Part shown: in pieces, positions 18,493 through 59,164 of the stretch | Layout of the letters: each line of letters opens with the position of its first letter | How positions within the stretch are numbered: position 1 is the stretch's first letter | Assembly (NCBI GenBank): GCA_017857235.1 | Contig: JAFMDN010000003.1 | Span: 2,005-66,004, forward strand | Direction of reading: 5' to 3' | From: Methanobacteriota archaeon | GTDB lineage: Archaea > Thermoplasmatota > Thermoplasmata > Thermoplasmatales > GCA-001856825 | Length of the DNA stretch: 64,000 bases | Notes under the pieces: model-generated | The model's database searches: none | Seen by the model: only the letters and a program-made list of their open reading frames with translations | Told to the model about the DNA's origin: nothing | Position numbers and translations under genes: made by a program

Positions 18493-18664
18493 CCTATTAC
18501 CCAAACAGGAAATTGAAAAAATAGATAAATAAATAACCAAAATTATCATTTTGGAACAAACAAAAAGAATTAATTTTAATTTGCGATAAGGTGAGCAAGC
18601 TCGAATGATATTTCTTAAAATCTGGAGAAAACTGTTTAATCCATGATGAAATTAATATTAAAAC

Positions 18665-28049: not shown

Positions 28050-28790
28050 TTATTTTTTCCATTTTGGCTTATTCCTTCTGTTGTATATTGCTGTAATCAC
28101 CACAATTACTAATATCATTGCAAGAATTATTGCGATTATTATATAGATATATTCTAAGAATGGGTTCCCTACTTGTATATCAATGTTGTATTTTCCACCT
28201 ATTATCTTAACAACAGTGCTATTGACCTTTGCCTGAATGTTGTATATGCCAGGAGATAGGGTTCCAGACAACCACTTGTAAGTTACATTTTCAGTTGTAT
28301 TTCCTGAAATATTAATCTCCGAGCTTCCGACGTATTTTCCATTTACATAGAAAGAGACATTTAGATCCTTGAAAATAAAATTGGTAGGATTATAAACCTT
28401 TACCTTTAGTATTGTATAGTTAAGAACCTGAACAGTTTCGGTTATGTTATAATAGAAAATCTGATTATTTAAATAAGCAATAACCTGGAAGAATAGGTAT
28501 AATGTGGTCTGGACTGAGGGTGCTGTTATGGTAAAATTCTGGGGGGAAAAAGTTCCATTAAGATACTGCGGAGAAATTGGAGATGCACCGGTTAAATTAT
28601 ACCCGCTGAGGACAAATACTATTTTATAATGGTTAAAAATTTGTTGTACGTTAACAGTATAATTAAAGGTCTCTCCTATGGCAACCTTATCAGGCCCTGT
28701 TATAGTTACAGGCCCATATGTATATGTTTCTGCAAGGGCAAGTACAGGTACCAATAAAATAAAAGCAAGTAAAAATGGAATTACCCTCAT
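28050..28790 (-). CDS. Exported, C-terminally anchored, sequon-rich surface protein
   Basis: 246 aa. Signal peptide MRVIPFLLAFILLVPVLALA, about 11 N-x-S/T sequons by hand count, beta-sandwich-type strand LSPGIYNIQAKV, C-terminal TM YIYIIIAIILAMILVIVVITAIY followed by NRRNKPKWKK. Its ATG overlaps the aglB stop (ATGA). Confidence 0.65.
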   Translation of the reverse strand: MRVIPFLLAFILLVPVLALAETYTYGPVTITGPDKVAIGETFNYTVNVQQIFNHYKIVFVLSGYNLTGASPISPQYLNGTFSPQNFTITAPSVQTTLYLFFQVIAYLNNQIFYYNITETVQVLNYTILKVKVYNPTNFIFKDLNVSFYVNGKYVGSSEINISGNTTENVTYKWLSGTLSPGIYNIQAKVNSTVVKIIGGKYNIDIQVGNPFLEYIYIIIAIILAMILVIVVITAIYNRRNKPKWKK

Positions 28791-34700: not shown

Positions 34701-34888
34701 GCGTCTGAACCTCCTGAAACTGCAAAATTCCCCTTTACTGCTACCCCTATTATGTAAAATGAACTGAGGAATAGGGATAAAAAGAATGACAGTAAGAGGG
34801 TGATTCCAATATAATTCTTGGTTAAGTACGATTTTATTCTTGTAAAGCTTGTTGTATTAGTTGCTTCTGCACCACCCATTAAATCCAC
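28787..34888 (-). CDS. aglB: Archaeal oligosaccharyltransferase AglB (STT3 family) with ~1100-aa C-terminal beta-sandwich extension and second membrane anchor
   Basis: 2033 aa. Polytopic N-terminus, GGSDAYYNMR (EL1 acidic motif), DTIAEAQ (TIXE-type), ISWWDYGFQ (WWDYG, nt 33158-33172). Then a CarboxypepD_reg-like GRVTDSSGMPIAGIRVTIDD...NSSGYYQL, repeated P-x-G-x-Y strands, and a terminal TM plus RRRNRA. Confidence 0.8.
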   Translation of the reverse strand: MDLMGGAEATNTTSFTRIKSYLTKNYIGITLLLSFFLSLFLSSFYIIGVAVKGNFAVSGGSDAYYNMRIIQYILATHHQLLYDPLLNYPIGLENPRPPFFHWLAVLLGYAFSPFLGGVYKSTMTMFLLETAIGGAFIVFPTYLLGKEVFNKKVGLIGAFLAALSPLTLMKSIASIGLFDIFTALFAIMMIYFFLKSVDTFKEVEGSNLRARIVNSVKANRISILYSILGGVSLTASMLTWVGTISVALIIVGVGIIQLIINTIRRKSNLSFLISSLFYSVGFILALPWYYETGFLFRWTPVFLVWLLLIITSLFVIIMERRTWIVTIGSYALLLAAAIVIIYFKDNTLLQNIISGQHYFIKNKIYDTIAEAQALPLGEDIMEFDPFMFFASLVAIGVLIYKWLKSKDFKTTLILFYSAGIIFISMIASKFLYFGASATGILTAYIIVEGFRRLGWQESLDKVKGRGTSKASLKELRFSQIVVILMVIFLLIVPATFYALDSGIPYNNKTQYDREIYNATPSFLRPQNYTPPYYLGAFGVSLDLPNSPWVRALDWFKNQDAQYPPNERPAFISWWDYGFQTLEQGQHPVMADNFQDGIYPAAQILMAQNESEIISVMIARIIDYFNQFNQLNNSTLKSILVQYFGVQGYQKIINYELNGPNYIPDIYANKSYYGPYEDIQPGDAKYILIEHYLTNTFNLSTLINAYQSLEQQTGFYMSYIAVDYRLFPFSGIDTGIFYAPAYLGDFQYINVQGEIVPIDFYNITVTDINGNTYPLQDFPPGDTAVSYNINYQPMFYNSTIYRVFIGYPPSVVGANNSIPGISSNLRYYYPMQAWGMPNFELVYKTVFWNPYTDYQNHSNAWQPVSLQQGYYYLTHHIGTVDLNPPASSVLPSDVVFVEYYPGAIIQGRVTDSSGMPIAGIRVTIDDQYGIPHETVLTNSSGYYQLYAVAGNDTIVVSTGSYNSLFMVGNNILEKYNITISQSQADRTAYSNTGEPLWIVNKNFQISSHSLAGTVFYNLAGISSFVPNTDVPANATLRFFNSSENYTLTVETGLNGSYYIPDIPPYEYNVSANVDGHWYYNVANVSINSNSTSKDIAIPYSKININFINKFQANGLNHLQITRGNFTQFLNISGSNYKIILPIGIFNISAENGPYRFSTILNLENKGNLTLNVTYEKYYYLNITQGGNYKIVSASYQDILNNSYSGEFNLMNNTFSAYLPPSIYLVSLTSIRSGIYYINETTVNLNNSLSIKPRFTEASMVTVTVFNGNRTQPGVPVEFMGNGIMLQFTTNSTGQFKAYLPYGTYSVTAYFNYNSSIYVSNGLYSIFSPNYNLQIFPGPGHTVTGHITSQNSGIILAYSSGIPVYYDVLTRGQKYIIYLPNGTNVNTVTFRSLGMNYEVEGLNISTSSSPVNVTFLIQSNYNYVYYIHLKGPENYNITASKSEVQTYIQPGSYEVYLTGDGIIPVSNVTSISILPVYNGQVIKLPVNVYVKFEVNTKGNVEIFRNGQLVSELLNSTLTPGTYSIYSNYYYTSNITTMNITRNSTFTPNLVQSYFLNIVNRVSGITYISNGTNIISTSTGIYLPAGYYYIYSFNRINTSYEYFGSASVNIPSQQTVYLNSSLVKLMGNVKFNSINSTFNSGFVQIQPLNYTVPFNSYVELPYGNYSIYAVSGKYAYIGTISVNTKWENITLNMARAYSLTYGTFIGSSAYTNEIYIDMGTRFYVKAFGTINLPNGSYLFQGSTILMNYGRPNNYVLKQEVNVSGPTYTTLEFQIVKNVAVKIFPMGGQLTGLPGHNVSFPIQIISNSNIPISFTLTNSSTFNVYNQYLNLTPYSMGIINATIGVPKGQPAGTYQIGMNLQYLGIYHYISVNVTVPNIISLNITVNNNTGSVLGNTIYYELNIKNTGNSKLNVTILVLNNVSLKQEGINVSVNNRPYSNISLYPNQFNQSNIGLSFQSGVFNINTPIVIEIKYGNQSLLYNLYPSIPGLEFKTIQAKGYGIQNYSALIQYSYMAGVIIFVVVLIVAIMISVRRRNRA

Positions 34889-45877: not shown

Positions 45878-45976
45878 TTATGGTGGTATTCAAATCTCGC
45901 ATAAATGAATTATTTTATATAGTTACAGATATATTAGTAAGAAAATCTAAAAAAGATTTAAATTTAAGCTTTCTAA

Positions 45977-46672
45977 ATGATATTTATGTCATTTAATTCA
46001 GAAAATTTTTACACACAACTGTATAGCTTTGTTAAGCAGCATCCGGCCACAAATAATGATTTCATAAATAGGTTTTCTAAGGGACAAGTCAGCCCCAGTG
46101 AATTCAATAGATTTTCTATTGAATTTTACCACTTTACACGGGAGTGGCCTTCAATCCTCGCAATACTCCTGGTTAATGAACCAAACGAATCTGATGCTTA
46201 CAATTTAACTAAAATATTGGTTTCTGAACTTGGTGATGATGACCCTAACAAAAGGCATGAATTATTATATAGAAGGTTTCTTAGATCTGTAGGGTTGAAT
46301 CCTTCTGAATTAATATTCAGGAAGAAACTTGATACAACAAGGGATTGGCTAGATGCCATGAGAAGGCTTTTCTCATCAAGTCATTTCAGGGCTTTAGGTG
46401 CTGAATTTGGCTTAGAAAACATGGCAATCCCAATGTGGGACAAATTGATCCCCGGATTAAATTACATCAAATCAAATTGGAAAGGATATGAGAAAATGGA
46501 TATTGAATACTTCACATTCCACAGGGAGCTGGAGATACATCATGAAGAAGCTATGGAAAATGTCCTTGGTGAACATATTGATGACGTATCTGCAAGGGAG
46601 GAATTTTACAACGGTGCTAAAGAGATTTTGGATTACGAAGAAAAATTCTGGTTAGGACTATCTGATAGGTGA
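45977..46672 (+). CDS. Heme-oxygenase-like iron-containing redox enzyme family protein (tentative)
   Basis: 231 aa, all-helical. Candidate metal-ligand motifs SELGDDDPNKRHELLY, GLENMAI and FHRELEIHHEEAM resemble the E..H pairs of the Haem_oxygenas_2/CADD-type family. ATG 45986 is an alternative start. Confidence 0.5.
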   Translation: MIFMSFNSENFYTQLYSFVKQHPATNNDFINRFSKGQVSPSEFNRFSIEFYHFTREWPSILAILLVNEPNESDAYNLTKILVSELGDDDPNKRHELLYRRFLRSVGLNPSELIFRKKLDTTRDWLDAMRRLFSSSHFRALGAEFGLENMAIPMWDKLIPGLNYIKSNWKGYEKMDIEYFTFHRELEIHHEEAMENVLGEHIDDVSAREEFYNGAKEILDYEEKFWLGLSDR

Positions 46673-47760
46673 ACTTCATGGAGAGGGATATTTACGATTC
46701 CATAGATTATATTGAATTTTATGTTGGTTCAGCTTTTCAATGGGCATATTTCCATCAAAAGGCAATGGGTTTTAAGCTTGATGCTTATTCAGGTCCCGAA
46801 ACAGGAATTAAGGATAGAGTTTCATATGCACTTTCACAAGGCAATGTAAAATTAATATTTACAAGTGCATTGACACCGGCTTCAGAGGTGGCAGAGCATA
46901 ATTATGTTCATGGAGATGGGGTTAAAGATATTGTTTTGAAAACAGATGATATAGAAGAAGTTAATTTAGATTTAAAAGAAAGGGGAGTAACATCCCTTAA
47001 TAATCTGGAAAATATAAAGACTGAATTTGGAATTTTAAAGAAAGCCTATATTAATACTTATGGTGTAACTAAACATTCTGTACTCGATTATTCAGAATAT
47101 GAAAATAAAACATTGCCGGGTTTTCAAGAGATAGATGAAGGAGAATCCTGGGGTTTAATAAATGCAGTTGACCATGTTGTGGGCAATGTGGAAATGAATA
47201 TGATGGATCGATGGGTTGACTATTATATAAGGGGAATGGGTTTTAGGCAGCTCATCTCGTTTGATGATAAAGATATATCCACTGAATATTCAGCCCTAAA
47301 ATCAAAGGTAGTTAAATATAAGAACAGAGACATTACATTCCCGATAAATGAACCAGCCTATGGAAAGAAGAAATCTCAGATACAGGAATATCTTGATTAT
47401 TATAAGACACCTGGGGTTCAGCATATTGCTTTGCGAACAGATAATATAATAGAGACAGTAGAAAAAATGAGGAAAAATGGGGTAAGATTTCTAGAAACTC
47501 CAAAGTCTTATTATGACAATCTTGAGGAAAGGGTTGGTAAAATAGACGAGGATATAGAAAAATTAAAAGAATTAAACATATTGGTGGATAGAGACGATAG
47601 GGGTTATCTTTTACAAATATTTACCAAGCCAATTGGAGACAGACCAACTTTCTTTTATGAGATAATACAAAGAAAAGGGGCTGAATCCTTCGGAAAAGGA
47701 AACTTTAAAGCACTGTTTGAGGCTATAGAGCGAGAACAGGCCAAAAGAGGAAATTTGTAA
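46669..47760 (+). CDS. hppD: 4-hydroxyphenylpyruvate dioxygenase
   Basis: 363 aa. IDYIEFYVG, VDHVVGNV, GVQHIALRTDNI, YLLQIFTKP, FFYEIIQRKGAESFGKGNFKALFEAIEREQ. Confidence 0.9.
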   Translation: MNFMERDIYDSIDYIEFYVGSAFQWAYFHQKAMGFKLDAYSGPETGIKDRVSYALSQGNVKLIFTSALTPASEVAEHNYVHGDGVKDIVLKTDDIEEVNLDLKERGVTSLNNLENIKTEFGILKKAYINTYGVTKHSVLDYSEYENKTLPGFQEIDEGESWGLINAVDHVVGNVEMNMMDRWVDYYIRGMGFRQLISFDDKDISTEYSALKSKVVKYKNRDITFPINEPAYGKKKSQIQEYLDYYKTPGVQHIALRTDNIIETVEKMRKNGVRFLETPKSYYDNLEERVGKIDEDIEKLKELNILVDRDDRGYLLQIFTKPIGDRPTFFYEIIQRKGAESFGKGNFKALFEAIEREQAKRGNL

Positions 47761-48593
47761 TGAAGTTGGGTACTGCAATAGTCGGAAATGATAGAAAGTT
47801 TATTAGGAAAATTAATAGATGGGAATTTACCGATGTCCCCCCCAACAATACTATGTTAATTGACTATAATTATGAGTTCCGTGAGTTAAATGGCGATATA
47901 ATTTTTGATATACCGGTGCCTGAAATTCAAAATGTAAGAGATTTTTATTCATTTGAAAGCCATGTTAAAAATTCTAGAAAACGCAGAGGCTTGGATATGG
48001 AACCCGAGTGGTATAATATACCTGCATATTATTATCAAAACAGGAGCAGTGTTTTACCAACGGAGCGTGAAATAAAATATCCGTCATTTACAAAACAATT
48101 GGATTTGGAAGTGGAATTGGCGTTTGTAATAGGAAAATCTGGTATTAATTTATCTCGAGAAAATGCTATTGATAATGTCCTAGGTTTTATGCTGGCAAAT
48201 GATTGGACGGCCAGAGACATTCAGAAGTCCGAAATGAAGATTGGCTTGGGCCCATCCAAGTCAAAAGATTTCGCTACCTCACTTGGCCCATATATCACTA
48301 CAATTGATGAACTCTCACATAAAATAGAAAGGGGGAGAATTTACCTTGAAATAGAACTTTTCATAAATGGAGTAAAAATTAGGACCCTCAGCACCGATGA
48401 TATGTACTGGACAATAAATGATCTTGTTAGTTATGCTTCAAAGGATTGTGAAATTAAATTGGGGGATGTTTTTATGACAGGTACGTTAGCAGGGGGGTCT
48501 CAAGCAGAGTTAGACGAAGATTTTCTGAAGAAAGGTGATTTGGTTGAGATCAGGTCTAAAGAACTTGGAATTTTGAAAAATAGGGTGGTATAA
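47760..48593 (+). CDS. Fumarylacetoacetate hydrolase (FAH) family protein, short form
   Basis: 277 aa. LDLEVELAFVIGK, ANDWTARDIQ, GPSKSKDF, GDVFMTGTLAG. 1-nt TAATG overlaps on both sides. Confidence 0.8.
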   Translation: MKLGTAIVGNDRKFIRKINRWEFTDVPPNNTMLIDYNYEFRELNGDIIFDIPVPEIQNVRDFYSFESHVKNSRKRRGLDMEPEWYNIPAYYYQNRSSVLPTEREIKYPSFTKQLDLEVELAFVIGKSGINLSRENAIDNVLGFMLANDWTARDIQKSEMKIGLGPSKSKDFATSLGPYITTIDELSHKIERGRIYLEIELFINGVKIRTLSTDDMYWTINDLVSYASKDCEIKLGDVFMTGTLAGGSQAELDEDFLKKGDLVEIRSKELGILKNRVV

Positions 48594-49726
48594 TGCCTTT
48601 TTATGTTAAGATTGGGAATTTACCAAAATACAGGCATACTTTCGATAAAGATGTCTATTTTGAAGAAGTTATAAGTTCGGAAAGTTTCGATGGGCCATAT
48701 AGCATATTATACCATAATAAGGAGCCAACCAACTTTTTGGAATATGAAATAAGGAACAAAGATGCAAAAATGGAGGAGAAATATATAAGCCAGCATTCCC
48801 ACATTCTAACTCAAAAAATTAAGGGGAATGGTGACTTTGCATATTCCAGGAAATATTTATTTGGTAATGATTATCTTTCAATAGGAATCTCTAGGGTAAA
48901 TAAGACAGGAGATTATCTAATGAGGTTCGGTAATAGGCATCTTCTTGCATTCGTACATCAGGGAGATGGACTACTGGAAACAAATATGGGGTCCTTGAAT
49001 TATTTTGAGCATGATTATATCTTAATTCCAAAAGGCGTACTGTTTAGGTTTATTCCTAAGGGTGAAACGTTTCTCTTTTTTGTAGAATCAGGAGATTCTA
49101 TTAATTTTCCACAGAGGTATGTTAACGGTTTAGGACAATTAAAGCTTCAATCCCCAATTAGCGATCGTAACATAAGGATCCCAGAATTAAGATATAGTGA
49201 TTTACCTGTGAAGAAAATTATTGTTGATTCGGGGAATGAATATTTGGAATATATTCCTTCCAGTGATCCTAGAGATCTTGTTGGTTGGGATGGCACATAC
49301 TACCCATTTGCATTAAATGCTTTGGATCAGATGCCGTGGGTTGGTAAGATACACCTTCCTCCTCCCGTTCATCAGACTTTTGATAGCAAACACTTCATGG
49401 TGGCTACATTTCTTCCAAGACCATTTGATTTCCATGAAAGGGCTATACCTATATCCTTCTATCATTCTAACGTTGATGTTGAGGAAATTCTTTTTTATTC
49501 CTCTGGAAACTTCATGAGTAGGAAAGGAATAAAAAAGGGATCGATTACCATACATGTTAGGAATCTGACTCACGGACCGCATCCCGGAAAATACAAAGAA
49601 TCTATAGGTAAAGAATGGACTGACGAACTTGCTGTTATGCTAGAGGTATATGACAGGATAAAATTCTACAAAGGTACAGATGAACTCCTTGACAAAAATT
49701 ATATGTCTAGCTGGAGGGAAGAATGA
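48593..49726 (+). CDS. hmgA: Homogentisate 1,2-dioxygenase (short archaeal-type)
   Basis: 377 aa. Cupin core with SFYHSNVDVEEILFY...ITIHVRNLTHGPHPG, resembling the HGD metal-ligand region (FHRN..SE...HGP). Pathway context with hppD and FAH. Confidence 0.7.
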   Translation: MPFYVKIGNLPKYRHTFDKDVYFEEVISSESFDGPYSILYHNKEPTNFLEYEIRNKDAKMEEKYISQHSHILTQKIKGNGDFAYSRKYLFGNDYLSIGISRVNKTGDYLMRFGNRHLLAFVHQGDGLLETNMGSLNYFEHDYILIPKGVLFRFIPKGETFLFFVESGDSINFPQRYVNGLGQLKLQSPISDRNIRIPELRYSDLPVKKIIVDSGNEYLEYIPSSDPRDLVGWDGTYYPFALNALDQMPWVGKIHLPPPVHQTFDSKHFMVATFLPRPFDFHERAIPISFYHSNVDVEEILFYSSGNFMSRKGIKKGSITIHVRNLTHGPHPGKYKESIGKEWTDELAVMLEVYDRIKFYKGTDELLDKNYMSSWREE

Positions 49727-50733
49727 AAGTATTCACTTATTTACCTATAAAAAAGGTGTATTATGGAGAAGATGCCAATGAGCACATCATGGATTTTATT
49801 CGTGTGAATTCCAAACTTTATATAGTTACAGGAAGAAGAACCTCGGAATCAAATGAATTTAAAAATATTCTTAAAAAATTAGAAAGTAAAAGAATAAATT
49901 ACGAGATTCTAAATTTCATATCTCAACACTCCCCAGACAATGAAATTGAAATCGCCCTCCAACAAATCGATGACCACCATGAGCATGATATACTAGGATA
50001 TGGAGGAGGCTCAGTTATAGATGCTTCTAAGATATTAAAATTGAAGTCAAACGCTCAAACACTTATTGCTGTGCCAACTACATTGAGTGCTTCCGAATTT
50101 TCACATATTGCTGGTTATTCGGAAAATGGGGAGAAGAAGGGGATAAGGGACATAAATATTACTCCAGATTATATTGTGCTTGACCCAAGAAATACTATTT
50201 CTACTCCAAGAGAACTTTATATGGCTTCTGGTATAAGGGCTATTGACCATGCGATTGAATCTGCCCTGGATCTAGGATTGTCTGATCCCAGGCTTTATAC
50301 CTCAGTAATATCCTATAAGCTTTTAAGGGATAATTTAAGGGGATCAAGTTTGGAGGAAAGAATGCTTTCCCAAATAGGCTCATGGTTCTCATATTTTAAT
50401 GTCTTTGATTCTCCAATGGGGCTAAGCCATGCCATTGGTAAAATAATTGGAGCAAAATATGGGATACCTCATGGATTCACATCTTGCATAACATTACCCG
50501 TGATAATTGACTACTACGAAAAAACTGGAAGGCTGGATAACTTTTTAAATCTCTTATTCCAAAAAGTTGATTACAAGGAACTAAAGAATGAAGTTGTTGA
50601 TTTGATTAAGTCTATCCCGGCCAAGACTAAGTTGTCCGAATATGGTCTAGGAAAGGAAGATATAGATATTATAATGGAAAAATTGAATGTTAATCATATA
50701 GGCATTGAGAATTACTTGGAGCAAATGCTATGA
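49723..50733 (+). CDS. Iron-containing alcohol dehydrogenase family protein (maleylacetate-reductase-like)
   Basis: 336 aa. GYGGGSVIDASK, VPTTLSASE and a His-rich C-terminal half (DHAIES, HAIGK, PHG) are typical of the Fe-ADH superfamily. Confidence 0.7.
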   Translation: MKVFTYLPIKKVYYGEDANEHIMDFIRVNSKLYIVTGRRTSESNEFKNILKKLESKRINYEILNFISQHSPDNEIEIALQQIDDHHEHDILGYGGGSVIDASKILKLKSNAQTLIAVPTTLSASEFSHIAGYSENGEKKGIRDINITPDYIVLDPRNTISTPRELYMASGIRAIDHAIESALDLGLSDPRLYTSVISYKLLRDNLRGSSLEERMLSQIGSWFSYFNVFDSPMGLSHAIGKIIGAKYGIPHGFTSCITLPVIIDYYEKTGRLDNFLNLLFQKVDYKELKNEVVDLIKSIPAKTKLSEYGLGKEDIDIIMEKLNVNHIGIENYLEQML

Positions 50734-51338
50734 TATATAATATAAATAATGAATTCTTAAAATGCATTGGATTAGAAGATTATACTGAAATCTTCCATAA
50801 ATTCAAAAAATCGGTATATCCGGCAATAGAAAGGATTAAAGGACAAGAACTATGGCAAATTTCTGAATGTGAGGCATTTTCATTGTTTGCTACGGTTTTT
50901 ATCATTAAACCAAGAATTATAATAGAAACTGGCGTGGGAGCTGGATTGTCAAGCTTATCTATACTTTCTGCGCTTGAGAATGGTAGATTGATAAGTATAG
51001 ATCCTCTAATAAGCTATGGGAATCCTCCAAGAAAGGATTTTGGTTTTCTTGTTCCTGATTATTTAAGAAAGAATTGGAATATTAGAAGAGGGCTATCAAG
51101 AGATATAATGCCTAAATTACTTGATGAAATTGGTTTTATAGATATTTTCCTTCATGATTCAGAGCATTCTTATGATAATATGTATTTCGAATTAAAAACA
51201 TCTTATTCACACATGAAGAACGGGATTATATTTGTTGATAATTATAACTGGAATAATGCTGCTATTGATTTTGCCAATGAAATGAACCTTAAGCTTTTAG
51301 ATGTATGCGACGATATGTGTGCCATATTAATTTATTAA
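50730..51338 (+). CDS. Class I SAM-dependent methyltransferase (Methyltransf_24/CmcI-like)
   Basis: 202 aa. IIETGVGAGLSSLSIL (motif I) and IFLHDSEHSYDNMYFEL, as in CmcI-type sugar/small-molecule O-methyltransferases. Confidence 0.6.
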   Translation: MIYNINNEFLKCIGLEDYTEIFHKFKKSVYPAIERIKGQELWQISECEAFSLFATVFIIKPRIIIETGVGAGLSSLSILSALENGRLISIDPLISYGNPPRKDFGFLVPDYLRKNWNIRRGLSRDIMPKLLDEIGFIDIFLHDSEHSYDNMYFELKTSYSHMKNGIIFVDNYNWNNAAIDFANEMNLKLLDVCDDMCAILIY

Positions 51339-51682: not shown

Positions 51683-52159
51683 ATGATTAAAATAATTATT
51701 GAGAAAATGGAACAATCTTCAAAATTTTCAAGTAAACTTGTATTCACATCAGTATTATTATTTATAATAACGGTCATCGCCCTAATTATTCTAATCACCG
51801 ACAAGAATTTGCAAACGGATTTTGGAGCTGTCAAGCCCTATTACTATCACTGGTATGGTCTTCTATTTTTAGCCATATTTACATTTGTGTGTGGGATATT
51901 AACCCTCTCAAAGAATAGCAGACTTTCTAGATATTCATCCATATTGGGAGGTGTTATTCCATTAATTTTTATAATCATAGATGTGTTCATTCTTTACAAA
52001 TCAGTTGGATTTTACAGTTACATACAATTTGCACAATATCTCTTTGGCATTTCAAGATACCCCTATTCTCTTCCATACATCCCAGGACTCTTCGATGTAT
52101 ACACTGCCCTATTATTCTTGGAATTAATATTAGCATTGATGATTAAATCTGCTGAATAG
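51683..52159 (+). CDS. Small integral membrane protein (about 4 TM)
   Basis: 158 aa with four long hydrophobic segments. No recognisable motif. Confidence 0.45.
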   Translation: MIKIIIEKMEQSSKFSSKLVFTSVLLFIITVIALIILITDKNLQTDFGAVKPYYYHWYGLLFLAIFTFVCGILTLSKNSRLSRYSSILGGVIPLIFIIIDVFILYKSVGFYSYIQFAQYLFGISRYPYSLPYIPGLFDVYTALLFLELILALMIKSAE

Positions 52160-52240: not shown

Positions 52241-52978
52241 TCATTTTATTTTCGTTATGTGAAAGAGAATAAAATTATAGAAGGGTGTCAGTATTCTTTT
52301 CTCTGTTTCGCTTATAATATAACTATTGTAAAATTTATTGAATCTGGTTTCTATGAAATTTTCCAATTTCCTTCTATGCATTAGACCGTAATTTATGGTT
52401 TCCACTGTTATCTTTTTATTTTCTATTTCTTCCTTAAGCAATTTGTAGATTAATTTTTCATTATGGAAACATATCCTTAACCCATTATCCACCAGGCAAT
52501 ACTTCATACGTGAAGGCGGAATTTCAAATTTATCTTTATTTTTGATGATATCATAAATAATTGTGATATTCATTAAATTGTCGATGTTGAATAATAATCT
52601 TCCACCGGGCTTTAAGTAATTTATCCATTCCTTTATAAATACTGGGTTATCATAATGGTGCACAGTCCTGAAACTTATTATTACATCAATAGAATTGTTT
52701 TTGAAAAGAGGTTTAGTGAAGTCTGCCCTAATTGCACATGTTGATTTCCCTTTTTTCATTTTCTGGAACTTCGTCAGGTTAGCTTTTGAATAATCAACAA
52801 GATAGACTTTATCAAAATCATTATTTATTATAGAACTAAGCCTACCATAACCCCCACCCAGATCAGCAAGGATCTCTCCTTTTAGTTTTAGGGATCTTAG
52901 TATCCTAATTTCAATTTGCTCCAGGCTTTCATCCTGGTTTTCAAAAATATAATTTTCAAACACCAGGATTAATATCAA
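52241..52978 (-). CDS. Class I SAM-dependent methyltransferase
   Basis: 245 aa. ILADLGGGYGRLS (motif I), VYLVDYS, IDVIISFRTVHH, LKPGGRLLF. Confidence 0.65.
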   Translation of the reverse strand: MILILVFENYIFENQDESLEQIEIRILRSLKLKGEILADLGGGYGRLSSIINNDFDKVYLVDYSKANLTKFQKMKKGKSTCAIRADFTKPLFKNNSIDVIISFRTVHHYDNPVFIKEWINYLKPGGRLLFNIDNLMNITIIYDIIKNKDKFEIPPSRMKYCLVDNGLRICFHNEKLIYKLLKEEIENKKITVETINYGLMHRRKLENFIETRFNKFYNSYIISETEKRILTPFYNFILFHITKIK

Positions 52979-53013
52979 TTAAATTTTTAAACTTACTTAA
53001 ATTATTATTAGCA

Positions 53014-53817
53014 ATGAAAGATTACTTTGAAGTATCTGACATATTTTCAAAAGCCTCTCCAGTTTATGATGATAAAATATCCCAAAATAAAACAAACCTC
53101 ATAATAAGGGATATAGAAGTGAATACCCTAGAACATTATATCAAAGAATTCAACGGGAATTTAGATAGGATATTGGAAATAGGTTGCGGAACTGGACAGG
53201 AAGCACTAAGAATTATGAAAAAATTTGACATTGGAGTTGATTGCATAGACATATCAAATGGAATGCTAAAAATTTCAGTGAATAAGATAAAAAATCATGG
53301 TCTATCTGATAAATTTAGACCTATGAGGTTAGCCGCATCTAACTTGGATGTACTAAAGAGAAGGTATAAAATAGTATACAGCTTCAACGGGGCTCTGAAT
53401 ACTGAACCACAATTTAAAAAATTCATAAAATCCATTGAAAGTGTGCTTGATGATGAAGGTGTACTTATTTTTAGCATTAGGAACAGGTACTGTATTAGTG
53501 ATTTTATATACTCAATGCTCAAATTTAATGGAAGAAGGATAAAGGAAAGGATTAAGGGAGATGTCCAAGTACCGGTAGCTGAATTTTTTGTAGAATCCAG
53601 ATATTTCTCATATAATGAAATTCTCAATCTATTTAATTCGGATTTTAAATTAATTAGAGCCTATGGATTAGGAATAATAATATTTCCTTATATTTCAAAT
53701 TTCTTTCCAAATGGGTTTTTCGATAATTTTATGGGAAAATTGGAAAAAAGCCTTTCTAAAGTATTTCCATTTAACATGTTGGGGGATGAAATTTTATATG
53801 TTTTTAAGAAACGCTAA
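53014..53817 (+). CDS. Class I SAM-dependent methyltransferase
   Basis: 267 aa. ILEIGCGTGQEA (motif I), CIDISNGML, LDDEGVLIFS. Confidence 0.7.
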   Translation: MKDYFEVSDIFSKASPVYDDKISQNKTNLIIRDIEVNTLEHYIKEFNGNLDRILEIGCGTGQEALRIMKKFDIGVDCIDISNGMLKISVNKIKNHGLSDKFRPMRLAASNLDVLKRRYKIVYSFNGALNTEPQFKKFIKSIESVLDDEGVLIFSIRNRYCISDFIYSMLKFNGRRIKERIKGDVQVPVAEFFVESRYFSYNEILNLFNSDFKLIRAYGLGIIIFPYISNFFPNGFFDNFMGKLEKSLSKVFPFNMLGDEILYVFKKR

Positions 53818-54817
53818 TTTTGAATATGTTAAGATTCCCCCTCCTTTCTTAAGGAAAGAAAGGGTAATATTATTGAAAAATGATTCAATAATGTTATTAT
53901 TAGCAAACAGGAAACAGGCTGAAATTTTTAATTTATTACCTTATGTGATTTACAAGAAATCGTATTTTAAGCTTCAAAAATACGAACATGGACAGCTCTA
54001 TGAGAACAACTTATCTTTAATCAAGGGCGACGTTTTTATTATGAATCTCGTCGAGGATATTGATTATAACTTGGAAGAAATTCTTGCAGAAGTTTTTAAC
54101 ACAGAGAATAAATATTACTTACAAAGCTTGAAGAATAATAAGGTCCAGGTTTATATGAGAGACTTTACTAGGAGATTAATTCTAAAATATGTAAAAAAGG
54201 GATCCGATGTTCTAGACCTTGGATCTGGGCCTGAACCAGAGACTTTGGTTTTAGAAGATACCTGCAATTTATATTGCTACGACATATCAGAAATAGCTTT
54301 GGAAAATTTAAGGAGAAATCACCCAAAAGTAAAACCAATTAACAGGGCTATCTTGGATTCTTTAGAAATTAAGTTCGATTCAATTTTTACGAGCTTCGGA
54401 TTTTTAGAACTTGCTGATTTAGATCTGGTAAAGAATATAATCGACAAAAATTTAAAAGATGGAGGAACATTTATTGCATGTTATCTTAACAAATTAGCAA
54501 TTTCAGACTTGTTACTTAACATTCTCCAGCTAAGATTTGGATATGCAATGCAGAGGCTTTCAGGAATGATTGACGGTAATCATTCAAGATATAGACTAGC
54601 GGTGAGATTAATAAATGATGACCTAATCGAGAAATTTGGAATAGAGATCAAAGAAAGCTATTCTATATGCAGCATACTGCCACCATATTATTTTACAAAC
54701 CTTATAGGTAAATTGGATATCAATAAACTCATACAAATGGATTACTCCTTATCAAATGTGAAGCTTCTTAGGAGCTTAGGAGATTTTAAGTGTATAGTAG
54801 GTGTAAAAAATGCATAG
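53798..54817 (+). CDS. Class I SAM-dependent methyltransferase with ~130-aa N-terminal extra domain
   Basis: VLDLGSGPEPETL (motif I), CYDISEIAL, LKDGGTFIA. Start trimmed from the track value 53711 to ATG 53798 (MFLRNANFEY). The earlier codons lie inside the preceding methyltransferase gene. Confidence 0.6.
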   Translation: MFLRNANFEYVKIPPPFLRKERVILLKNDSIMLLLANRKQAEIFNLLPYVIYKKSYFKLQKYEHGQLYENNLSLIKGDVFIMNLVEDIDYNLEEILAEVFNTENKYYLQSLKNNKVQVYMRDFTRRLILKYVKKGSDVLDLGSGPEPETLVLEDTCNLYCYDISEIALENLRRNHPKVKPINRAILDSLEIKFDSIFTSFGFLELADLDLVKNIIDKNLKDGGTFIACYLNKLAISDLLLNILQLRFGYAMQRLSGMIDGNHSRYRLAVRLINDDLIEKFGIEIKESYSICSILPPYYFTNLIGKLDINKLIQMDYSLSNVKLLRSLGDFKCIVGVKNA

Positions 54818-56552
54818 TCTCAAAAATTGGAGGGTATTTCTGTTTATTAGTATTCTTTTGCTGATAATAACTTATCTTCTATCCTTGGCACCCTATGGCT
54901 ATAACACATTTACCATCAATAATGGAAATTTTTCAATTGAAGTATCACCAATAAATTTCACACCCATAGGAAATTTTTTTGGATTTCAATCCATTAAGAT
55001 AATAATTATAAACAATGGATATGAAAATCTTAGCTCTTCCATTAGTTACGCCAATCATTTATTGAATTTATCTTTAAAACCGCATTCTGGAACTATTCAA
55101 TACATACAACCCAAGTCTAGCTTTAATCTATTATATATTAATATTACCACGTTAAATTACACGAAAGACATTACAATTAAGATAAATTTCAATTCGCCTC
55201 TACTTACCCTTTTATCTGAAATAACTATGCTCTTCTCATTCTATTTTTATTATCTATTCTTGAAATTTTATAATTCTAATTTCAAACTTACATGGTTAAT
55301 AATACTGCTTGGCTACCTAATATTGGCTCCATTTTTCGGGCAAAGATATGATATGTATTTTGTGCTCACTTCTCCCCTTAGGATTATTAAGCACATAAAT
55401 CCCTTTATAGGCAATGAAATGATGCCAGGCGGGTTAAAATGGGCCTATCCTCCTTTGTTTCTAATTTATGGTATACTATTTTATACGGTTTTGCATTATT
55501 TTGGTTTAAATTTCGATCCATCATTCACATATCTTGTTACATCTGGATATGAATATAGTGCTTGGAGAGGTTTTTACAATCCTGAGCTCCCTTTACTTTT
55601 CTTCCTTGAGAAATTACCCCTGATAATTTCAACTTTCATAATTTATTGGTTATTTCTTAAAAAATTTAATTTCCAATATTCAAAGATTGAACTGGAAAAA
55701 TTCTGGTTACTCAATCCGCTGATTATTCTCATAGGCACCGTTTGGGGTCAGTTTGATATGCTCTCTTTATTAAGTATGATTCTCTCTATCTACTTCTTCC
55801 TAAAGAACAGAACCGACTTAGCATCTATATTTGCCACAATCGGTGCTTTTATTAAGATATTTCCAGTCATCTTAATACCTTACATAATATTGAATAGCCA
55901 AAGGAAAATAAGAGATATATCTTATGTAATCCTATTTAGCGTTATTTCATTGATTCCTTATTTTATTGCCGGTAATTTTTATATGGACTTAGAGGTTCTA
56001 ATTTACTCAAGATCGGTTCCTACTGTCAATGGATACTTTTTTGCCAACGGAATGACATGGCAAATATTACCTTTGTACCTTGGAATCAAAAATTTTCCTG
56101 GAATATTTCCTTACATTTTAATTCCAATTTATCTGACCTTGCTTATTATGTCAAAAAGGTTGAAAATAAGTATTATAGAGTTTTCTCTGATCTTTATAAT
56201 TTCTTTCTTTATATTTTTCAACTTTGTGAATCCACAGTATTTTATCATACCTGTTGCGCTTTTTATATTAATGAGGAATAAGCCTTATCTAATTCTATAT
56301 TCTCTCATTCCAATATTGTATGTTTTCCTAAATTATTCATTCCCTTATTTCGTCAATTACTATTATTCTTACAATTATTTCTCATCAACTCTTGGCTTGG
56401 GTGAAAGCTTTAGGCTCTTCTTTACTAATAGCGCCATTACCTTAGGAACCTATGTAGTAATTTGCACTATAATTTACATAATGACGTTATTAGCTATAAT
56501 AAGAGATATCCTATCTCGAAATAAGTCTCCAGATTCCATACTCCCGTCCTAG
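54810..56552 (+). CDS. GT-C-fold polytopic glycosyltransferase candidate (DUF2029/PIG-V-like mannosyltransferase type)
   Basis: 580 aa. N-terminal TM plus a ~100-aa sequon-bearing external domain, then more than 10 TM segments with FGQRYDMYF (first-loop Asp) and WGQFDMLSLLSMILSIYFFLKNRTDLASIFATIGAFIKIFPVILIPY, a pattern typical of polyprenol-P-sugar-dependent GT-C enzymes. Confidence 0.5.
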   Translation: MHSLKNWRVFLFISILLLIITYLLSLAPYGYNTFTINNGNFSIEVSPINFTPIGNFFGFQSIKIIIINNGYENLSSSISYANHLLNLSLKPHSGTIQYIQPKSSFNLLYINITTLNYTKDITIKINFNSPLLTLLSEITMLFSFYFYYLFLKFYNSNFKLTWLIILLGYLILAPFFGQRYDMYFVLTSPLRIIKHINPFIGNEMMPGGLKWAYPPLFLIYGILFYTVLHYFGLNFDPSFTYLVTSGYEYSAWRGFYNPELPLLFFLEKLPLIISTFIIYWLFLKKFNFQYSKIELEKFWLLNPLIILIGTVWGQFDMLSLLSMILSIYFFLKNRTDLASIFATIGAFIKIFPVILIPYIILNSQRKIRDISYVILFSVISLIPYFIAGNFYMDLEVLIYSRSVPTVNGYFFANGMTWQILPLYLGIKNFPGIFPYILIPIYLTLLIMSKRLKISIIEFSLIFIISFFIFFNFVNPQYFIIPVALFILMRNKPYLILYSLIPILYVFLNYSFPYFVNYYYSYNYFSSTLGLGESFRLFFTNSAITLGTYVVICTIIYIMTLLAIIRDILSRNKSPDSILPS

Positions 56553-57386
56553 CCAGAGGTCTATCCTCGCGAGCAAGCTAGACAATCCCTCCATGAAAAT
56601 CAACAGAATTAAGCTTGGCAATACGTTAGGATCATCCTTAATAACAAATAGAAGTATGTTGAATGAATGCCTAATATTGGCAAGAGAAATGGTTGACAGA
56701 GAGTATGGATCATTACCTTCCAATTTAAGTTCCCAGTGTCCATAGTTTATCCTTCTCCTTTGATTAAGATAATCATTAAGATTTCTTGGTGGGATGCATC
56801 TTATTTTGACTTCGTTTGAGTATTTTATCTTGTAACCCATCTTATAGGCAATGTTGCAGAAAAAAGCATCTTCATTTATTTCTCCCTTATAACCAAATAG
56901 TAATTCCTTTCTTACAAATAGAATTTCACCTGCATGAGCAGGTAGACCTTTAGATAACTTATACCTTATCTGGTAATCATTAACTATCCATAGCACTCTG
57001 AAAATTTTATTGAATAATCCAGTGTCTTTAATAGGTTCTATTCTTGCAAACACAACTCCTGTATCTTCACTGAACTTCGAGGCTAGATAATCCAAGATAT
57101 CATCATTATCTATTAAGATATCACCGGACACCATGGCAACAACATCTTCCCTTACTATTGAAATTGCTTCTATAACAGATTTTGGTTTACCTAGGCGACT
57201 GTTCTGTTTTATAAATTGAAACCTATCATCTTTGATGCCGAATATATAGTCATATGGTAATTTTCCCCCTCCAATAAGTGTAATTCTTCTAGCATTACTG
57301 TGTAGGGCGCTATTTAGAACACCTTTTAATAGGTCGGAATCATCGTAACTAAAAATAACAATTTCATAATTCATTTTCGGTCCCAT
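56511..57386 (-). CDS. Family 2 glycosyltransferase with C-terminal membrane segment
   Basis: 291 aa. YEIVIFSYDDSDLL (GT-A N-terminus), MVSGDILIDNDD (DxD-like), NQRRRINYGHW (QxxRW-like), hydrophobic tail PSLILLIFMEGLSSLL. Confidence 0.55.
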   Translation of the reverse strand: MGPKMNYEIVIFSYDDSDLLKGVLNSALHSNARRITLIGGGKLPYDYIFGIKDDRFQFIKQNSRLGKPKSVIEAISIVREDVVAMVSGDILIDNDDILDYLASKFSEDTGVVFARIEPIKDTGLFNKIFRVLWIVNDYQIRYKLSKGLPAHAGEILFVRKELLFGYKGEINEDAFFCNIAYKMGYKIKYSNEVKIRCIPPRNLNDYLNQRRRINYGHWELKLEGNDPYSLSTISLANIRHSFNILLFVIKDDPNVLPSLILLIFMEGLSSLLARIDLWLGREYGIWRLISR

Positions 57387-58050
57387 TTACTTTTTTTCTA
57401 AGTTCTCCATATTTTCTCGAATCAAAATAAAATTTTCTCCACCCATAGACAATTTTGAAATCTCCTTTTGACTTTTCCAATTTCTTTGATGCGATCATTC
57501 CCTTTATTAATACAGGAGGCAAAACGACTATCATGGATATGAGATTTAATAATAAATTTTTGATATGTCTAATTTTAAATTTCTCATTTTTAATCTTATT
57601 TGTAGGTACCTTTGGCTCTGTTTCCCTGTTGTTTATTTTTTCTAATAAGGATTCATAAAAATTTTGTCCGAAAATAACAATTGCATGTTTGGCATCAGAT
57701 ATTATCAACTTATCATCTAGTCTTTGAAAATAGTCTACCGAGAAACGCTCGTCCATAAATAGCGACAAACAAATTCTATCATATCGATACAGTTTTCTAA
57801 CAATGAGAGATTTAAGAAAAACAAACCATAAAAGATCCTTTTTCGTTATAAGGAAAATATCTATATCATCTTCAGGAGATGGTTCATATGAAGTAGATCC
57901 TACAATAGCACTTACTCTTATCCCCTTTTCCCCTAGCTCTCTAAGAAATTTTGTGCCTATTTCTATGAACTCTGCTTTAATGGATTTTTGCTCTGTCAAC
58001 AGCGAATTATTATTTTTTCCATCATTCCAATTGTATGGGGAAAACTTCAT
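57364..58050 (-). CDS. Pol-beta-superfamily nucleotidyltransferase-domain protein with hydrophobic C-terminal segment
   Basis: 228 aa. IVGSTSYEPSPEDDIDIFLI fits the minimal NTase G-S...D-x-D motif. Later LLLNLISMIVVLPPVLIKGMIA is TM-like. 23-nt overlap with the downstream GT2. Confidence 0.5.
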   Translation of the reverse strand: MKFSPYNWNDGKNNNSLLTEQKSIKAEFIEIGTKFLRELGEKGIRVSAIVGSTSYEPSPEDDIDIFLITKKDLLWFVFLKSLIVRKLYRYDRICLSLFMDERFSVDYFQRLDDKLIISDAKHAIVIFGQNFYESLLEKINNRETEPKVPTNKIKNEKFKIRHIKNLLLNLISMIVVLPPVLIKGMIASKKLEKSKGDFKIVYGWRKFYFDSRKYGELRKKVNGTENEL

Positions 58051-58306
58051 TTACATTTCATTAAAAATAAATTTCGAATAATAACTTAACGTTAATTAAA
58101 AGTTTTAGGTTTTCCTCATAAGCTACAAAAAGATTAAACATTGAATTTAAAAATTATAATTGAATTAAAAATGTTAGGAGTTAACCCAACCTATTATAAT
58201 GAAAATTGTAACACATGCTATAGTATGTATTATTTAAATTCATCCCTCTTAATTCTAATTGCTACAGATCATTCGGGTGGTGCAATTATTGCAGGGATGA
58301 GGGAAA

Positions 58307-59164
58307 GTGCCAATGGTTTTTAATAATTCAAAAGACCATCACCTTATTGATTCACTCCAAAGTTATGCTAATCTGGAGATCAATTTGGCATCACAAAGAA
58401 GTCCCTCTGAATATTTAAGACCGTTTTCCCTAATTCTTCCTTGTAAAAATGATGCTTACCTATTGGAGAAATTGCTTCATATAATAGAAAATTTAGATAA
58501 TGAATTTTTTTCAAAAAAATTCGAAGTAATAATAATTGACGAATCCACAGATCAAAAAAGTATAGAAATTATAGATAAACTTCCCTTAATTTTCTCTAAT
58601 TTAAATATGAAAATCACTAGAGTGCCGCCGGGTACTGGGCTTCTGACATCAGAATTGATAGGGCTTAAAGCGGCAATGTATCCATGGAAAGTCGTTATGG
58701 ATTGCGATCTCCAGCATTCTCCAAAAGATATCTTTAAATTATTGGAAAAACTTAATTCTCAGGCAGACTTGGTTGTGGGGTCAAGATTCCTGGATGGTAG
58801 TGATTTCCAACTATCCATATTCCGCAGGGTTGTAAGTATATTGGCCAACGCATATGTAAAGATCATTCTTCCCTTTGCTATTTATTTAACAGATACCACT
58901 TCTGGCTTTTTTGCGATTTCCGAAAAAGTTTCCGTTGAAAATGTCCAAATTAAAGGTAGTAAGACTCTACTGTTCATAATTTCTAAAAATCCAGGCCTAA
59001 AAATTGCAGAAGTACCGATCACTTTCAATAGAAGGATTTATGGAAAAAGCAAACTTTTCAATCCTTTATATTTAATGAGATTTCCTTTGGAAATATACGA
59101 ATATAGGAAGTATTATTTGAAATGCAAAAAAGGTGATTCTAAGAAATCCCTTGATAATCCCTGA
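58307..59164 (+). CDS. Dolichyl/polyprenyl-phosphate hexosyltransferase-like GT2 (Dpm1/AglD/AglJ type)
   Basis: 285 aa. SLILPCKNDAYLL, VIIIDESTD, MDCDLQHSPKD (the D-x-D-L-Q-H block of Dol-P-sugar synthases), VGSRF. GTG 58307 or ATG 58313 start. Confidence 0.7.
   Translation: MPMVFNNSKDHHLIDSLQSYANLEINLASQRSPSEYLRPFSLILPCKNDAYLLEKLLHIIENLDNEFFSKKFEVIIIDESTDQKSIEIIDKLPLIFSNLNMKITRVPPGTGLLTSELIGLKAAMYPWKVVMDCDLQHSPKDIFKLLEKLNSQADLVVGSRFLDGSDFQLSIFRRVVSILANAYVKIILPFAIYLTDTTSGFFAISEKVSVENVQIKGSKTLLFIISKNPGLKIAEVPITFNRRIYGKSKLFNPLYLMRFPLEIYEYRKYYLKCKKGDSKKSLDNP

Follow-up and report, generated by a model that had tools for sequence, protein, structure and literature searches.

A heme-oxygenase-like dimetal protein gene heads a predicted isomerase-less homogentisate operon in a Thermoplasmatales archaeon

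We analysed a stretch of 64,000 nucleotides (positions 2,005 to 66,004 of contig JAFMDN010000003.1, hereafter the window) from a Thermoplasmatales archaeon, in which six co-directional open reading frames (ORF1 to ORF6) lie between 45977 and 51338. Judged from its genes, the locus reads as one transcription unit for aerobic tyrosine catabolism via homogentisate, and it probably serves phenylalanine catabolism as well. ORF2, ORF3 and ORF4, which are predicted to encode 4-hydroxyphenylpyruvate dioxygenase (HPPD), a short FAH-family hydrolase and a short homogentisate 1,2-dioxygenase (HGD), place the operon in the glutathione-independent, isomerase-less type HPPD / short FAH / short HGD. ORF1 encodes a predicted heme-oxygenase-like dimetal protein (HDO) and is probably an unrecognised part of the homogentisate pathway, since HDO genes also lie beside homogentisate genes in Nitrospirales and cyanobacteria. 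We assign a probability of about 0.6 to this explanation taken as a whole, that is, a homogentisate catabolic operon with the lower steps proposed below and with an HDO tied to the pathway.

The three core enzymes were assigned by profile searches. ORF2 (46669..47760, + strand) scored 400.5 bits against the TIGR01263 equivalog (cut-off 277), and its residues 11-363 aligned to model positions 2-353, covering the full length, so that it is classified as a true HPPD at the equivalog level. ORF3 (47760..48593, + strand, 277 aa) is a short FAH-family C-C hydrolase that matched FAA_hydrolase (PF01557) with 178 bits and consists of the catalytic domain alone, the N-terminal domain that eukaryotic-type FAH has being absent. 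Against the fumarylacetoacetase model TIGR01266 it scored 79.4 bits, under the cut-off of 375.3, with residues 56-186 aligned to model positions 122-271, and its PDB matches include FAH structures (1qqj/1hyo) over the same region; ORF3 therefore belongs to the FAA_hydrolase domain family and not to the two-domain fumarylacetoacetases (EC 3.7.1.2) of about 420 aa. ORF4 (48593..49726, + strand, 377 aa) as a single sequence reached 30.5 bits against TIGR01015, under the cut-off of 510.75, and its Pfam HgmA_N match was likewise below cut-off. Its family profile (A3) matched human HGO (1ey2) with E=8.3e-16 and 3zds with E=3e-12, and the predicted iron ligands H291, E298 and H327 aligned with H335, E341 and H371 of HGO (yyH, dE and hGP) in invariant columns. 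A search returned 3,669 homologues, to which NCBI gives the name homogentisate 1,2-dioxygenase, and ORF4 is classified as a divergent short HGD keeping the Fe triad. The labels HppD, short FAH-family hydrolase and homogentisate dioxygenase, which an earlier reading of the sequence alone had given to these genes, were thus borne out by TIGR01263, by PF01557 and by the A3 profile against 1ey2, respectively.

The same sequence-only reading had remarked on the lack of a GST-like maleylacetoacetate isomerase. Pfam searches of the ORFs of at least 100 aa in the 64-kb window detected no GST, DinB or MDMPI domain, which agrees with this remark, but the lack turned out to be a trait of the operon type and not of the locus. 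We sampled 80 metagenome loci (L096-L175) with the HGD profile only, so that the sample is unbiased regarding other genes. Of the 80 loci, 53 had HPPD and 45 had FAH beside HGD, HPPD-FAH-HGD being the usual order, and GST was absent from the recurrent neighbour families annotated there, although not every neighbour was annotated. In B. anthracis, BAS0226 (HPPD), BAS0227 (FAH) and BAS0228 (HmgA) follow the same order with overlapping FAH and HmgA genes, no maleylacetoacetate isomerase is identifiable in the genome, and the fate of maleylacetoacetate was acknowledged as an open problem in 2015 (PMC4457819). An older report of a Bacillus maleylacetoacetate hydrolase is cited in that paper. The hppD-hmgB-hmgA operon of the B. 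cereus group and the window operon thus share the order HPPD, short FAH, HGD, the FAH/HGD overlap and the lack of an identifiable isomerase, with ORF3 in the position of BAS0227. The Bacillus operon as described comprises three genes only (PMC4457819), whereas the operon of the window, from a thermoacidophilic archaeon, is extended on both sides by the HDO, Fe-ADH and methyltransferase genes. Absence of the isomerase therefore characterises a widespread HPPD / short-FAH / short-HGD operon type and is not special to the window.

With the canonical pathway (Pseudomonas hmgABC; human HPD, HGD, GSTZ1 and FAH) the window has in common an HPPD at the equivalog level and the HGD fold with its His-Glu-His iron site. 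It differs in having no GST-zeta, an HGD shorter by about 60 residues, an FAH without the N-terminal domain, and additional reductase-type and HDO genes. The canonical end product, acetoacetate, is also the implied product here, because acetoacetate-CoA ligase genes adjoin related clusters. Such a gene (TIGR01217, 786 bits, cut-off 521) was present in 8 of the 80 HGD-sampled loci, and an orthologue 45% identical to the marine one lies divergently beside HPPD in Ferroplasma-type loci (L043:6555-8495, L056:13929-15869, L059:5378-7312 and L070:13995-15944). Within the window we found no acetoacetate-CoA ligase gene, and no His_Phos_1, PCC or Cld-like gene.

Two further gene families recurred in the HGD-sampled loci. 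A Flavin_Reduct (PF01613) gene directly follows the short-type HGD in 35 of the 80 (e.g. L128:9763-10392), and in marine-type loci it holds the slot of the Thermoplasmatales Fe-ADH gene, which suggests that ring cleavage is followed by a redox step or by the re-reduction of iron. A family of 312-aa proteins, with no Pfam, NCBIfam or PDB sequence match, occurs in 7 of the 80 loci after HGD or beside an AsnC-type regulator (e.g. L129:4108-5046 and L172:1657-2631), and it also stands upstream of HPPD in L116 and L126.

ORF1 (45977..46672, + strand) is 231 aa long, or 228 aa if translation starts at 45986. It matched Pfam Haem_oxygenas_2 (PF14518) with 94 bits (cut-off 28.9), and an AlphaFold2 model built with 15 orthologues was all-helical with pLDDT 91.2 and pTM 0.88. 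In Foldseek searches the model matched BesC, CADD, HrmI, FlcD, SznF and UndA with probability 1.00 and TM scores up to 0.83; BesC, CADD, HrmI and FlcD were the best (0.77-0.83), and the TenA thiaminases came after them (0.65-0.69). The putative ligands E84, H94, E147, H182, E186 and H189 were invariant in the 15 orthologues, which have no invariant Cys, and they aligned with the matching Glu and His positions of BesC, while E147 and H94 aligned with the CADD ligands E142 and H88. Five of the six ligand columns were invariant across archaeal, Nitrospirales and cyanobacterial members, the second His lying inside a cyanobacterial insertion. Five Arg residues (R32, R55, R93, R99 and R183) are also invariant in the family, whose identity across the order is 54-78%. 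Among 1.84 billion representative proteins, 329 matches were obtained at E<=1e-3 and only 10 at E<=1e-30. By fold and ligands, ORF1 is classified as a predicted O2-activating dimetal (diiron-type) protein of the HDO superfamily. The view that the first gene encodes a heme-oxygenase-like iron protein with a possible dimetal site of Glu and His residues therefore held up: the protein profiled neither as TenA nor as a metal-free helical protein.

Within the superfamily, ORF1 appears from its sequence to fit none of the characterised families. The TENA_THI-4 match reached 36 bits over residues 28-140 only, and this, together with the missing invariant Cys and the rank of the TenA structures below the dimetal HDOs, led us to reject a TenA/thiaminase II assignment. 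PqqC was rejected too: its structures ranked 39th or lower in Foldseek, no PqqC model was among the NCBIfam matches of ORF1 at E<=0.01, and pqq genes were absent from the gene tables and the annotated neighbours in the examined loci. Public records that name the protein 'PqqC' or 'TenA family transcriptional regulator' are accordingly unsupported. BesC (4-chloro-allylglycine synthase) was the best match in sequence and structure (7twa, E=9.5e-17, TM 0.80), and ORF1 has the seven-helix fold and the pattern of three His and three carboxylate ligands found in BesC, HrmI, SznF, AetD and SktA; identity to BesC is only 22-23%, however, the curated BesC model gave 66.7 bits (cut-off 500), and ORF1-family genes lie in primary catabolic clusters, whereas BesC-type HDO genes lie in biosynthetic ones. 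CADD/CT610 also has the HDO fold (TM 0.77-0.79) with aligned Glu and His ligands, and its chemistry is reported to begin from a tyrosine side chain (PMC9522330). A CADD-type p-aminobenzoate synthase was rejected for ORF1: TIGR04305 gave 49.6 bits (cut-off 200), the sacrificial Tyr27 and Lys152 of CADD are replaced by I30 and L157, and no folate genes lie near ORF1.

The linkage between HDO and homogentisate genes was evaluated in an HDO-centred sample consisting of the window and the best 80 of 115 confirmed species-level genome loci; 8 loci had too little downstream sequence, leaving 73 informative ones. HDO lay within 10 kb of homogentisate genes in 41 of these 73 Thermoplasmatales loci, in three architectures whose other neighbours differ. 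In Ferroplasma and Acidiplasma, HDO stands tail-to-tail with HGD, the stop codons 3-37 bp apart, with a distance of 10 bp in Picrophilus. The Cuniculiplasmataceae, E-plasma and Oxyplasma have the co-directional genes HDO, His_Phos_1 and PCC, on which the run HPPD, FAH, HGD and Fe-ADH converges. In the window and L007, its nearest relative, HDO is co-directional with the operon and fused to its head. Seven further loci have HDO and the cluster 5-8.4 kb apart. In L008, the closest relative without the cluster, whose HDO is 89% identical to that of the window, the entire block from HPPD to the methyltransferase gene is absent; comparison of L008:10001-10720 with window 45977-46700 and 51683-52159 placed the missing block exactly between the HDO stop codon, which is followed at once by a homologue of the window's 158-aa membrane protein, and that membrane-protein gene. 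The L008 HDO itself has lost 1 nt and is out of frame after about residue 40.

Outside the Thermoplasmatales, a Nitrospirales orthologue 44% identical to ORF1 (tblastn) lies divergently beside VOC-HGD-FAH genes, with a PRTase-like gene after FAH, and is co-directional with genes for an acyl-CoA ligase, a branched-chain oxoacid dehydrogenase complex, a thiolase and a hydroxyacyl-CoA dehydrogenase. In this lineage, L090:9135-9686 (- strand) encodes a stand-alone 183-aa C-terminal catalytic half of HPPD (TIGR01263, 91 bits) next to short HGD and FAH genes, with no full-length HPPD. A cyanobacterial relative of 306 aa has no Pfam match and was connected to ORF1 by hhalign (probability 99%, E=8e-18, 30% identity). 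Four metagenome loci have its gene immediately 3' of HGD, as part of an HPPD-HGD-HDO-like operon that occurs again, with unrelated flanks, in Chlorogloeopsis and Leptothermofonsia genomes (L109:3652-4575, L116:11213-12133, L122:2850-3779, L126:6777-7700, L176:7001-7915 and L177:7001-7921). These proteins of 304-309 aa have an insertion of about 45 aa and are annotated 'hypothetical protein', as are nearly all of the 4,701 database homologues of the subfamily. More distant relatives (P0245 and P0257, 30-44% identity) adjoin Liv-type amino-acid ABC transporter genes. The association with the heme-oxygenase-like gene, which the sequence-only reading proposed to look for across Thermoplasmatales and Sulfolobales, is therefore conserved in three lineages and reaches beyond that guess into Nitrospirales and cyanobacteria; the Sulfolobales part was not confirmed, as the best 80 of the 115 confirmed genome loci were all Thermoplasmatales-type and held no Sulfolobales orthologue. 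Our literature search found no paper treating both heme-oxygenase-like enzymes and homogentisate, and no relevant literature on homogentisate in Thermoplasmatales. What was known already is the homogentisate pathway in its Bacillus-like isomerase-less form and, by fold and ligands, the HDO superfamily; new are a conserved HDO of primary metabolism attached to hppD/hmgA in three phyla and the reductase-type gene after HGD.

This reductase-type gene, ORF5 (49723..50733, + strand), encodes an Fe-ADH-fold NAD(P)H enzyme with matches to Fe-ADH PF00465 and PF25137. As a single sequence it matched the PDB entry 9ph0, named only 'MAR1', best (1e-33), followed by 3w5s, 3hl0 and 3iv7; its profile (A5) gave 228 bits with 9ph0 against 137 for the next match, with three maleylacetate reductases in the top seven. 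By sequence, ORF5 is assigned to a subfamily of the Fe-ADH fold whose closest solved relative is 9ph0. It shares with 9ph0 and the maleylacetate reductases (GraC 3w5s, 3hl0, 3jzd and 3iv7) the fold and the GGGS nucleotide motif, and with 9ph0 the motif RA(I/V)DHA(I/V)E, which we take to lack the Asp at -4 from the His that binds iron in true Fe-ADHs. Maleylacetate reductases act on a maleyl-ketone, a substructure also present in maleylacetoacetate; the dioxygenase gene that ORF5 follows is that of homogentisate, not hydroxyquinol, dioxygenase. Searches for literature on a maleylacetoacetate reductase, or linking MAR1 with maleylacetate reductase, found nothing relevant. The Fe-ADH gene comes after HGD, and usually overlaps it, in 29 loci, which are most of the Thermoplasmatales clusters; where present it is always immediately 3' of HGD. 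Only 3 of the 80 HGD-sampled loci, all Thermoplasmatales-type, contained it, so in that sample the gene is confined to the Thermoplasmatales and is not a core member. As a separate observation, a PCC/DUF296 gene (138 aa) stands convergent to the Fe-ADH gene in L087, L178 and L179 and in 28 of the 81 HDO-centred loci, these 28 all being Thermoplasmatales (e.g. L024:11300-11713, L069:14279-14692, L087:10167-10583 and L178:11183-11599); it stays where HDO is unlinked, and the window lacks it.

Taken together, these assignments suggest the following route. ORF2 would convert 4-hydroxyphenylpyruvate to homogentisate, whose ring ORF4 would open to give maleylacetoacetate, both steps being supported by sequence. 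Cis-trans isomerisation of the GST type would not take place. In Thermoplasmatales, ORF5 would instead saturate the maleyl C=C bond with NAD(P)H, and ORF3 would cleave the resulting succinylacetoacetate to succinate and acetoacetate; we put this reductive bypass forward tentatively. In clusters without ORF5 (Picrophilus, Ferroplasma and Bacillus), the short FAH may hydrolyse the cis compound directly, as the older Bacillus report would have it. In either case ORF3 would act as a 1,3-diketone hydrolase that releases acetoacetate, in line with its sequence, and in related loci the neighbouring acetoacetate-CoA ligase would activate it.

For ORF1, a functional tie to the homogentisate pathway rather than chance neighbourhood is likely, given its recurrent gene context. 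The role that we prefer, as possible although doubtful, is an entry reaction in which O2 is used on an aromatic amino acid or an aryl acid to feed HPPD and HGD. In the window, HDO occupies the slot at the operon head that is held in marine relatives by an aminotransferase: a class I/II aminotransferase gene heads the operon in 14 of the 80 HGD-sampled loci, all marine-type, and none of these 14 has an HDO. The named relatives BesC and HrmI act on free amino acids, which supports the idea of an entry step, and the HDOs SktA and AetD act on tryptophan (PMC11869266). The amino-acid transporter genes beside P0245 and P0257 speak for an entry step too. A more far-reaching claim would be that the HDO family has a catalytic part in homogentisate metabolism that has so far been overlooked, as the first HDO of central amino-acid catabolism, acting at the maleylacetoacetate step or at entry, and that the Fe-ADH bypass yields succinate instead of fumarate; on the gene evidence we hold this at slightly less than even odds. 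Elsewhere in the window, 13168-15578 (- strand) and 15575-18549 (- strand) encode an IorB/IorA-like arylpyruvate:ferredoxin oxidoreductase pair (a 196-aa POR-gamma and a 607-aa POR_N+TPP protein), adjoining a second set of 2-oxoacid:ferredoxin oxidoreductase genes, so the genome also appears to have an O2-independent arylpyruvate route.

Several observations weigh against the preferred explanation. HDO was not within 10 kb of the cluster in 32 of the 73 informative loci, Cuniculiplasma-type contigs carry the cluster without an HDO within 9 kb, and in most Thermoplasmatales HDO converges on the cluster, which does not imply co-transcription. A gene for a presumably unrelated HerA-like ATPase is an equally frequent neighbour of HDO (37 loci), so part of the archaeal adjacency may be inherited synteny. 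The frameshift in L008 comes from a single metagenome-assembled genome and may be an assembly error. The position of the cyanobacterial HDO-like gene after HGD favours a role after ring cleavage over one at entry. As to ORF5, it is hardly closer to the bacterial maleylacetate reductases (3jzd, 3w5s and 3hl0, 124-128 bits with A5) than to the methanol and aldehyde-alcohol dehydrogenases interleaved with them (121-137 bits), and the Fe-ADH gene is missing from the Picrophilus, Ferroplasma, Nitrospirales and cyanobacterial clusters, and also from Acidiplasma, so that the reductive bypass cannot be general.

Other explanations of the HDO were weighed against the same evidence. The protein might be the missing fourth enzyme, processing maleylacetoacetate independently of glutathione, either by isomerising it from cis to trans, with the dimetal site serving for transient electron transfer or as a Lewis acid, or by another conversion, so that HPPD, HGD, FAH and HDO would replace the set with GST-zeta. 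The gene sets of Picrophilus, Ferroplasma and Acidiplasma, exactly HPPD-FAH-HGD plus a convergent HDO, fit this, as does the Nitrospirales set of VOC-HGD-FAH plus a divergent HDO; the cyanobacterial gene sits directly 3' of HGD, in the slot taken by Flavin_Reduct or Fe-ADH in other lineages, no GST is seen in the window or among the annotated neighbour families, and the five invariant Arg residues would suit a dicarboxylate substrate. We nevertheless consider it unlikely. To our knowledge no HDO is an isomerase, and cyanobacteria have glutathione and no obvious need of a substitute. Thermoplasmatales often hold both Fe-ADH and HDO, which argues against their being alternatives for one step, 74 of the 80 short-HGD loci have no HDO within reach, and Bacillus manages with HPPD-FAH-HGD alone (PMC4457819). 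A role outside the carbon pathway is also conceivable, with HDO maintaining the labile Fe(II) dioxygenases HPPD and HGD by iron delivery or re-reduction, or by removing oxidised homogentisate or peroxide. It would explain why, of the partners, an HPPD-type VOC enzyme and HGD alone, and not FAH, are shared by all three phyla, and it would suit the flavin-reductase-like gene that follows HGD in marine-type loci (35 of the 80 HGD-sampled ones). Flavin-reductase-like proteins can serve as ferric reductases, and HDO scaffolds hold a weakly bound, exchangeable metal; we know of no precedent, however, for an HDO as a metallochaperone. The six-ligand set and the 54-78% identity resemble an enzyme under strong active-site selection, and relatives beside amino-acid transporter genes point to a small-molecule substrate, which makes the maintenance role improbable.

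About equally improbable is that HDO is an unrelated housekeeping protein, for example of cofactor synthesis like CADD and p-aminobenzoate, kept near the cluster by inherited synteny and brought to the operon head by an inversion in the lineage of the window. HDO is indeed more conserved (54-78% identity) than HGD or FAH (about 38-51%), it stays in the 32 of 73 loci where no cluster is nearby (compare L034-L040 with L178/L179), its commonest co-directional partners are the His_Phos_1 and HerA-like ATPase genes with 37 loci each, and it has the weak TIGR04305 match to the CADD family. Inherited synteny cannot explain, however, why the linkage recurs in Nitrospirales and cyanobacteria in other gene orders at 26-48% identity. 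Picrophilus, Ferroplasma and the window keep the pair though all surroundings have changed, in L008 the reading frame of HDO was lost along with the block, and against a CADD-like function stand the I30/L157 replacements and a CADD score far under its cut-off (49.6 versus 200). Finally, the cluster could be biosynthetic, making a modified product derived from homogentisate or from its cleaved ring, with HDO and the methyltransferase as tailoring enzymes. Most characterised HDOs do belong to natural-product pathways (PMC11869266, PMC11363339), a methyltransferase gene is translationally coupled at the 3' end of the operon, and a UbiA prenyltransferase gene follows the HDO-like gene in one cyanobacterium. 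Yet HGD and FAH destroy the aromatic ring, the methyltransferase is limited to two closely related genomes, and the surroundings of related clusters contain acetoacetate-CoA ligase, thiolase, BCKDH-complex and methylcitrate-cycle genes and AsnC/Lrp regulators. The cluster is also present in many Thermoplasmatales lineages, as primary metabolism would be, and we regard a biosynthetic function as very improbable.

If the preferred explanation of a catabolic operon with a pathway-tied HDO is right, it bears on a pathway question that dates from early Bacillus work and was restated in 2015 for B. anthracis (PMC4457819), namely how maleylacetoacetate is disposed of without GST-zeta; the candidates for this step are the short FAH, the reductase-type gene after HGD and the HDO. 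Nearly all characterised HDOs come from natural-product pathways, and an HDO of tyrosine catabolism would open a new functional branch. ORF1-type HDOs are small (231 aa) and presumably well-behaved and thermostable, and the family extends over archaea, Nitrospirales and thousands of cyanobacterial sequences, so that widespread annotations as 'PqqC', 'TenA regulator' and 'hypothetical protein' would be corrected.

As to the organisation of the locus, a listing of the ORFs reproduced all six on the + strand at the positions expected from the first reading of the sequence. The overlaps said to chain them were found at four junctions, as TAATG at 47758-47762 and 48591-48595 and as ATGA at 49723-49726 and 50730-50733. 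At junction 1 the proposed GTGA is present at 46669-46672, but ATG 46678 is kept in L007, is the likely start of ORF2 and is used in public gene calls, which give a 360-aa product; depending on the start, the junction overlaps by 4 nt or leaves a gap of 5 nt. Overlaps occur in 22 of the window's 41 pairs of co-directional neighbours, and 14 of these overlaps measure 4 nt, so the chain is real but statistically unremarkable, overlap being the norm in this genome. A chain free of spacers fits a single transcription unit, bounded upstream by a 99-bp AT-rich spacer and a divergent DUF302 gene and downstream by a 344-bp spacer. The AT-rich block AAAGATTTAAATTTAAG (45952..45968, + strand) 5' of ORF1 is a candidate archaeal BRE/TATA promoter, possibly for the whole operon. 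In a comparison of three genomes, its 17 nt were invariant in the window, L007 and L008 amid diverging intergenic sequence, and it lies about 25 nt 5' of the second ATG of ORF1 (45986). Because the block is conserved at promoter distance from this ATG, ORF1 may start at 45986, which would imply a leaderless or near-leaderless mRNA. A scan with bacterial promoter models gave 25 hits versus 30 expected and no terminators, such models being uninformative for an archaeon. Exact-sequence matches were obtained in hot-spring metagenome contigs, in which the locus adjoins an archaeal A/V-type ATPase operon and whose relatives are Thermoplasmatales.

ORF6 (50730..51338, + strand) encodes a class I methyltransferase dependent on S-adenosylmethionine (SAM). 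It matched Methyltransf_24 (PF13578) with 43.7 bits, and in the PDB an O-methyltransferase of family 3 with E=0.02; the suggestion of a CmcI-like methyltransferase is thus right as to the methyltransferase, while the likeness to CmcI is weak (E=0.005, below cut-off). The gene is part of the operon only in the window and L007, which are closely related genomes, and this distribution is too narrow for a core pathway enzyme; ORF6 is probably a recent, lineage-specific passenger. Directly after the operon, window 52241-59164 holds a run of SAM-methyltransferase and GT2/GT87-like glycosyltransferase genes, to which ORF6 may belong. In a strain variant (L005:15364-16984), an IS200/IS605 Y1 transposase gene and TnpB (OrfB_IS605/Cas12f-like) are inserted directly after the methyltransferase gene, replacing a membrane-protein gene that is present in the window.

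Two other ORFs of the window are of unusual composition. A 2,033-aa ORF at 28787-34888 (- strand) combines an N-terminal STT3 domain (AglB-type oligosaccharyltransferase) with CarboxypepD_reg and is very large for an archaeal oligosaccharyltransferase, and a fused ORF of 431 aa at 11007-12305 (- strand) consists of an OMPdecase/HUMPS-family domain followed by an RraA-like domain.

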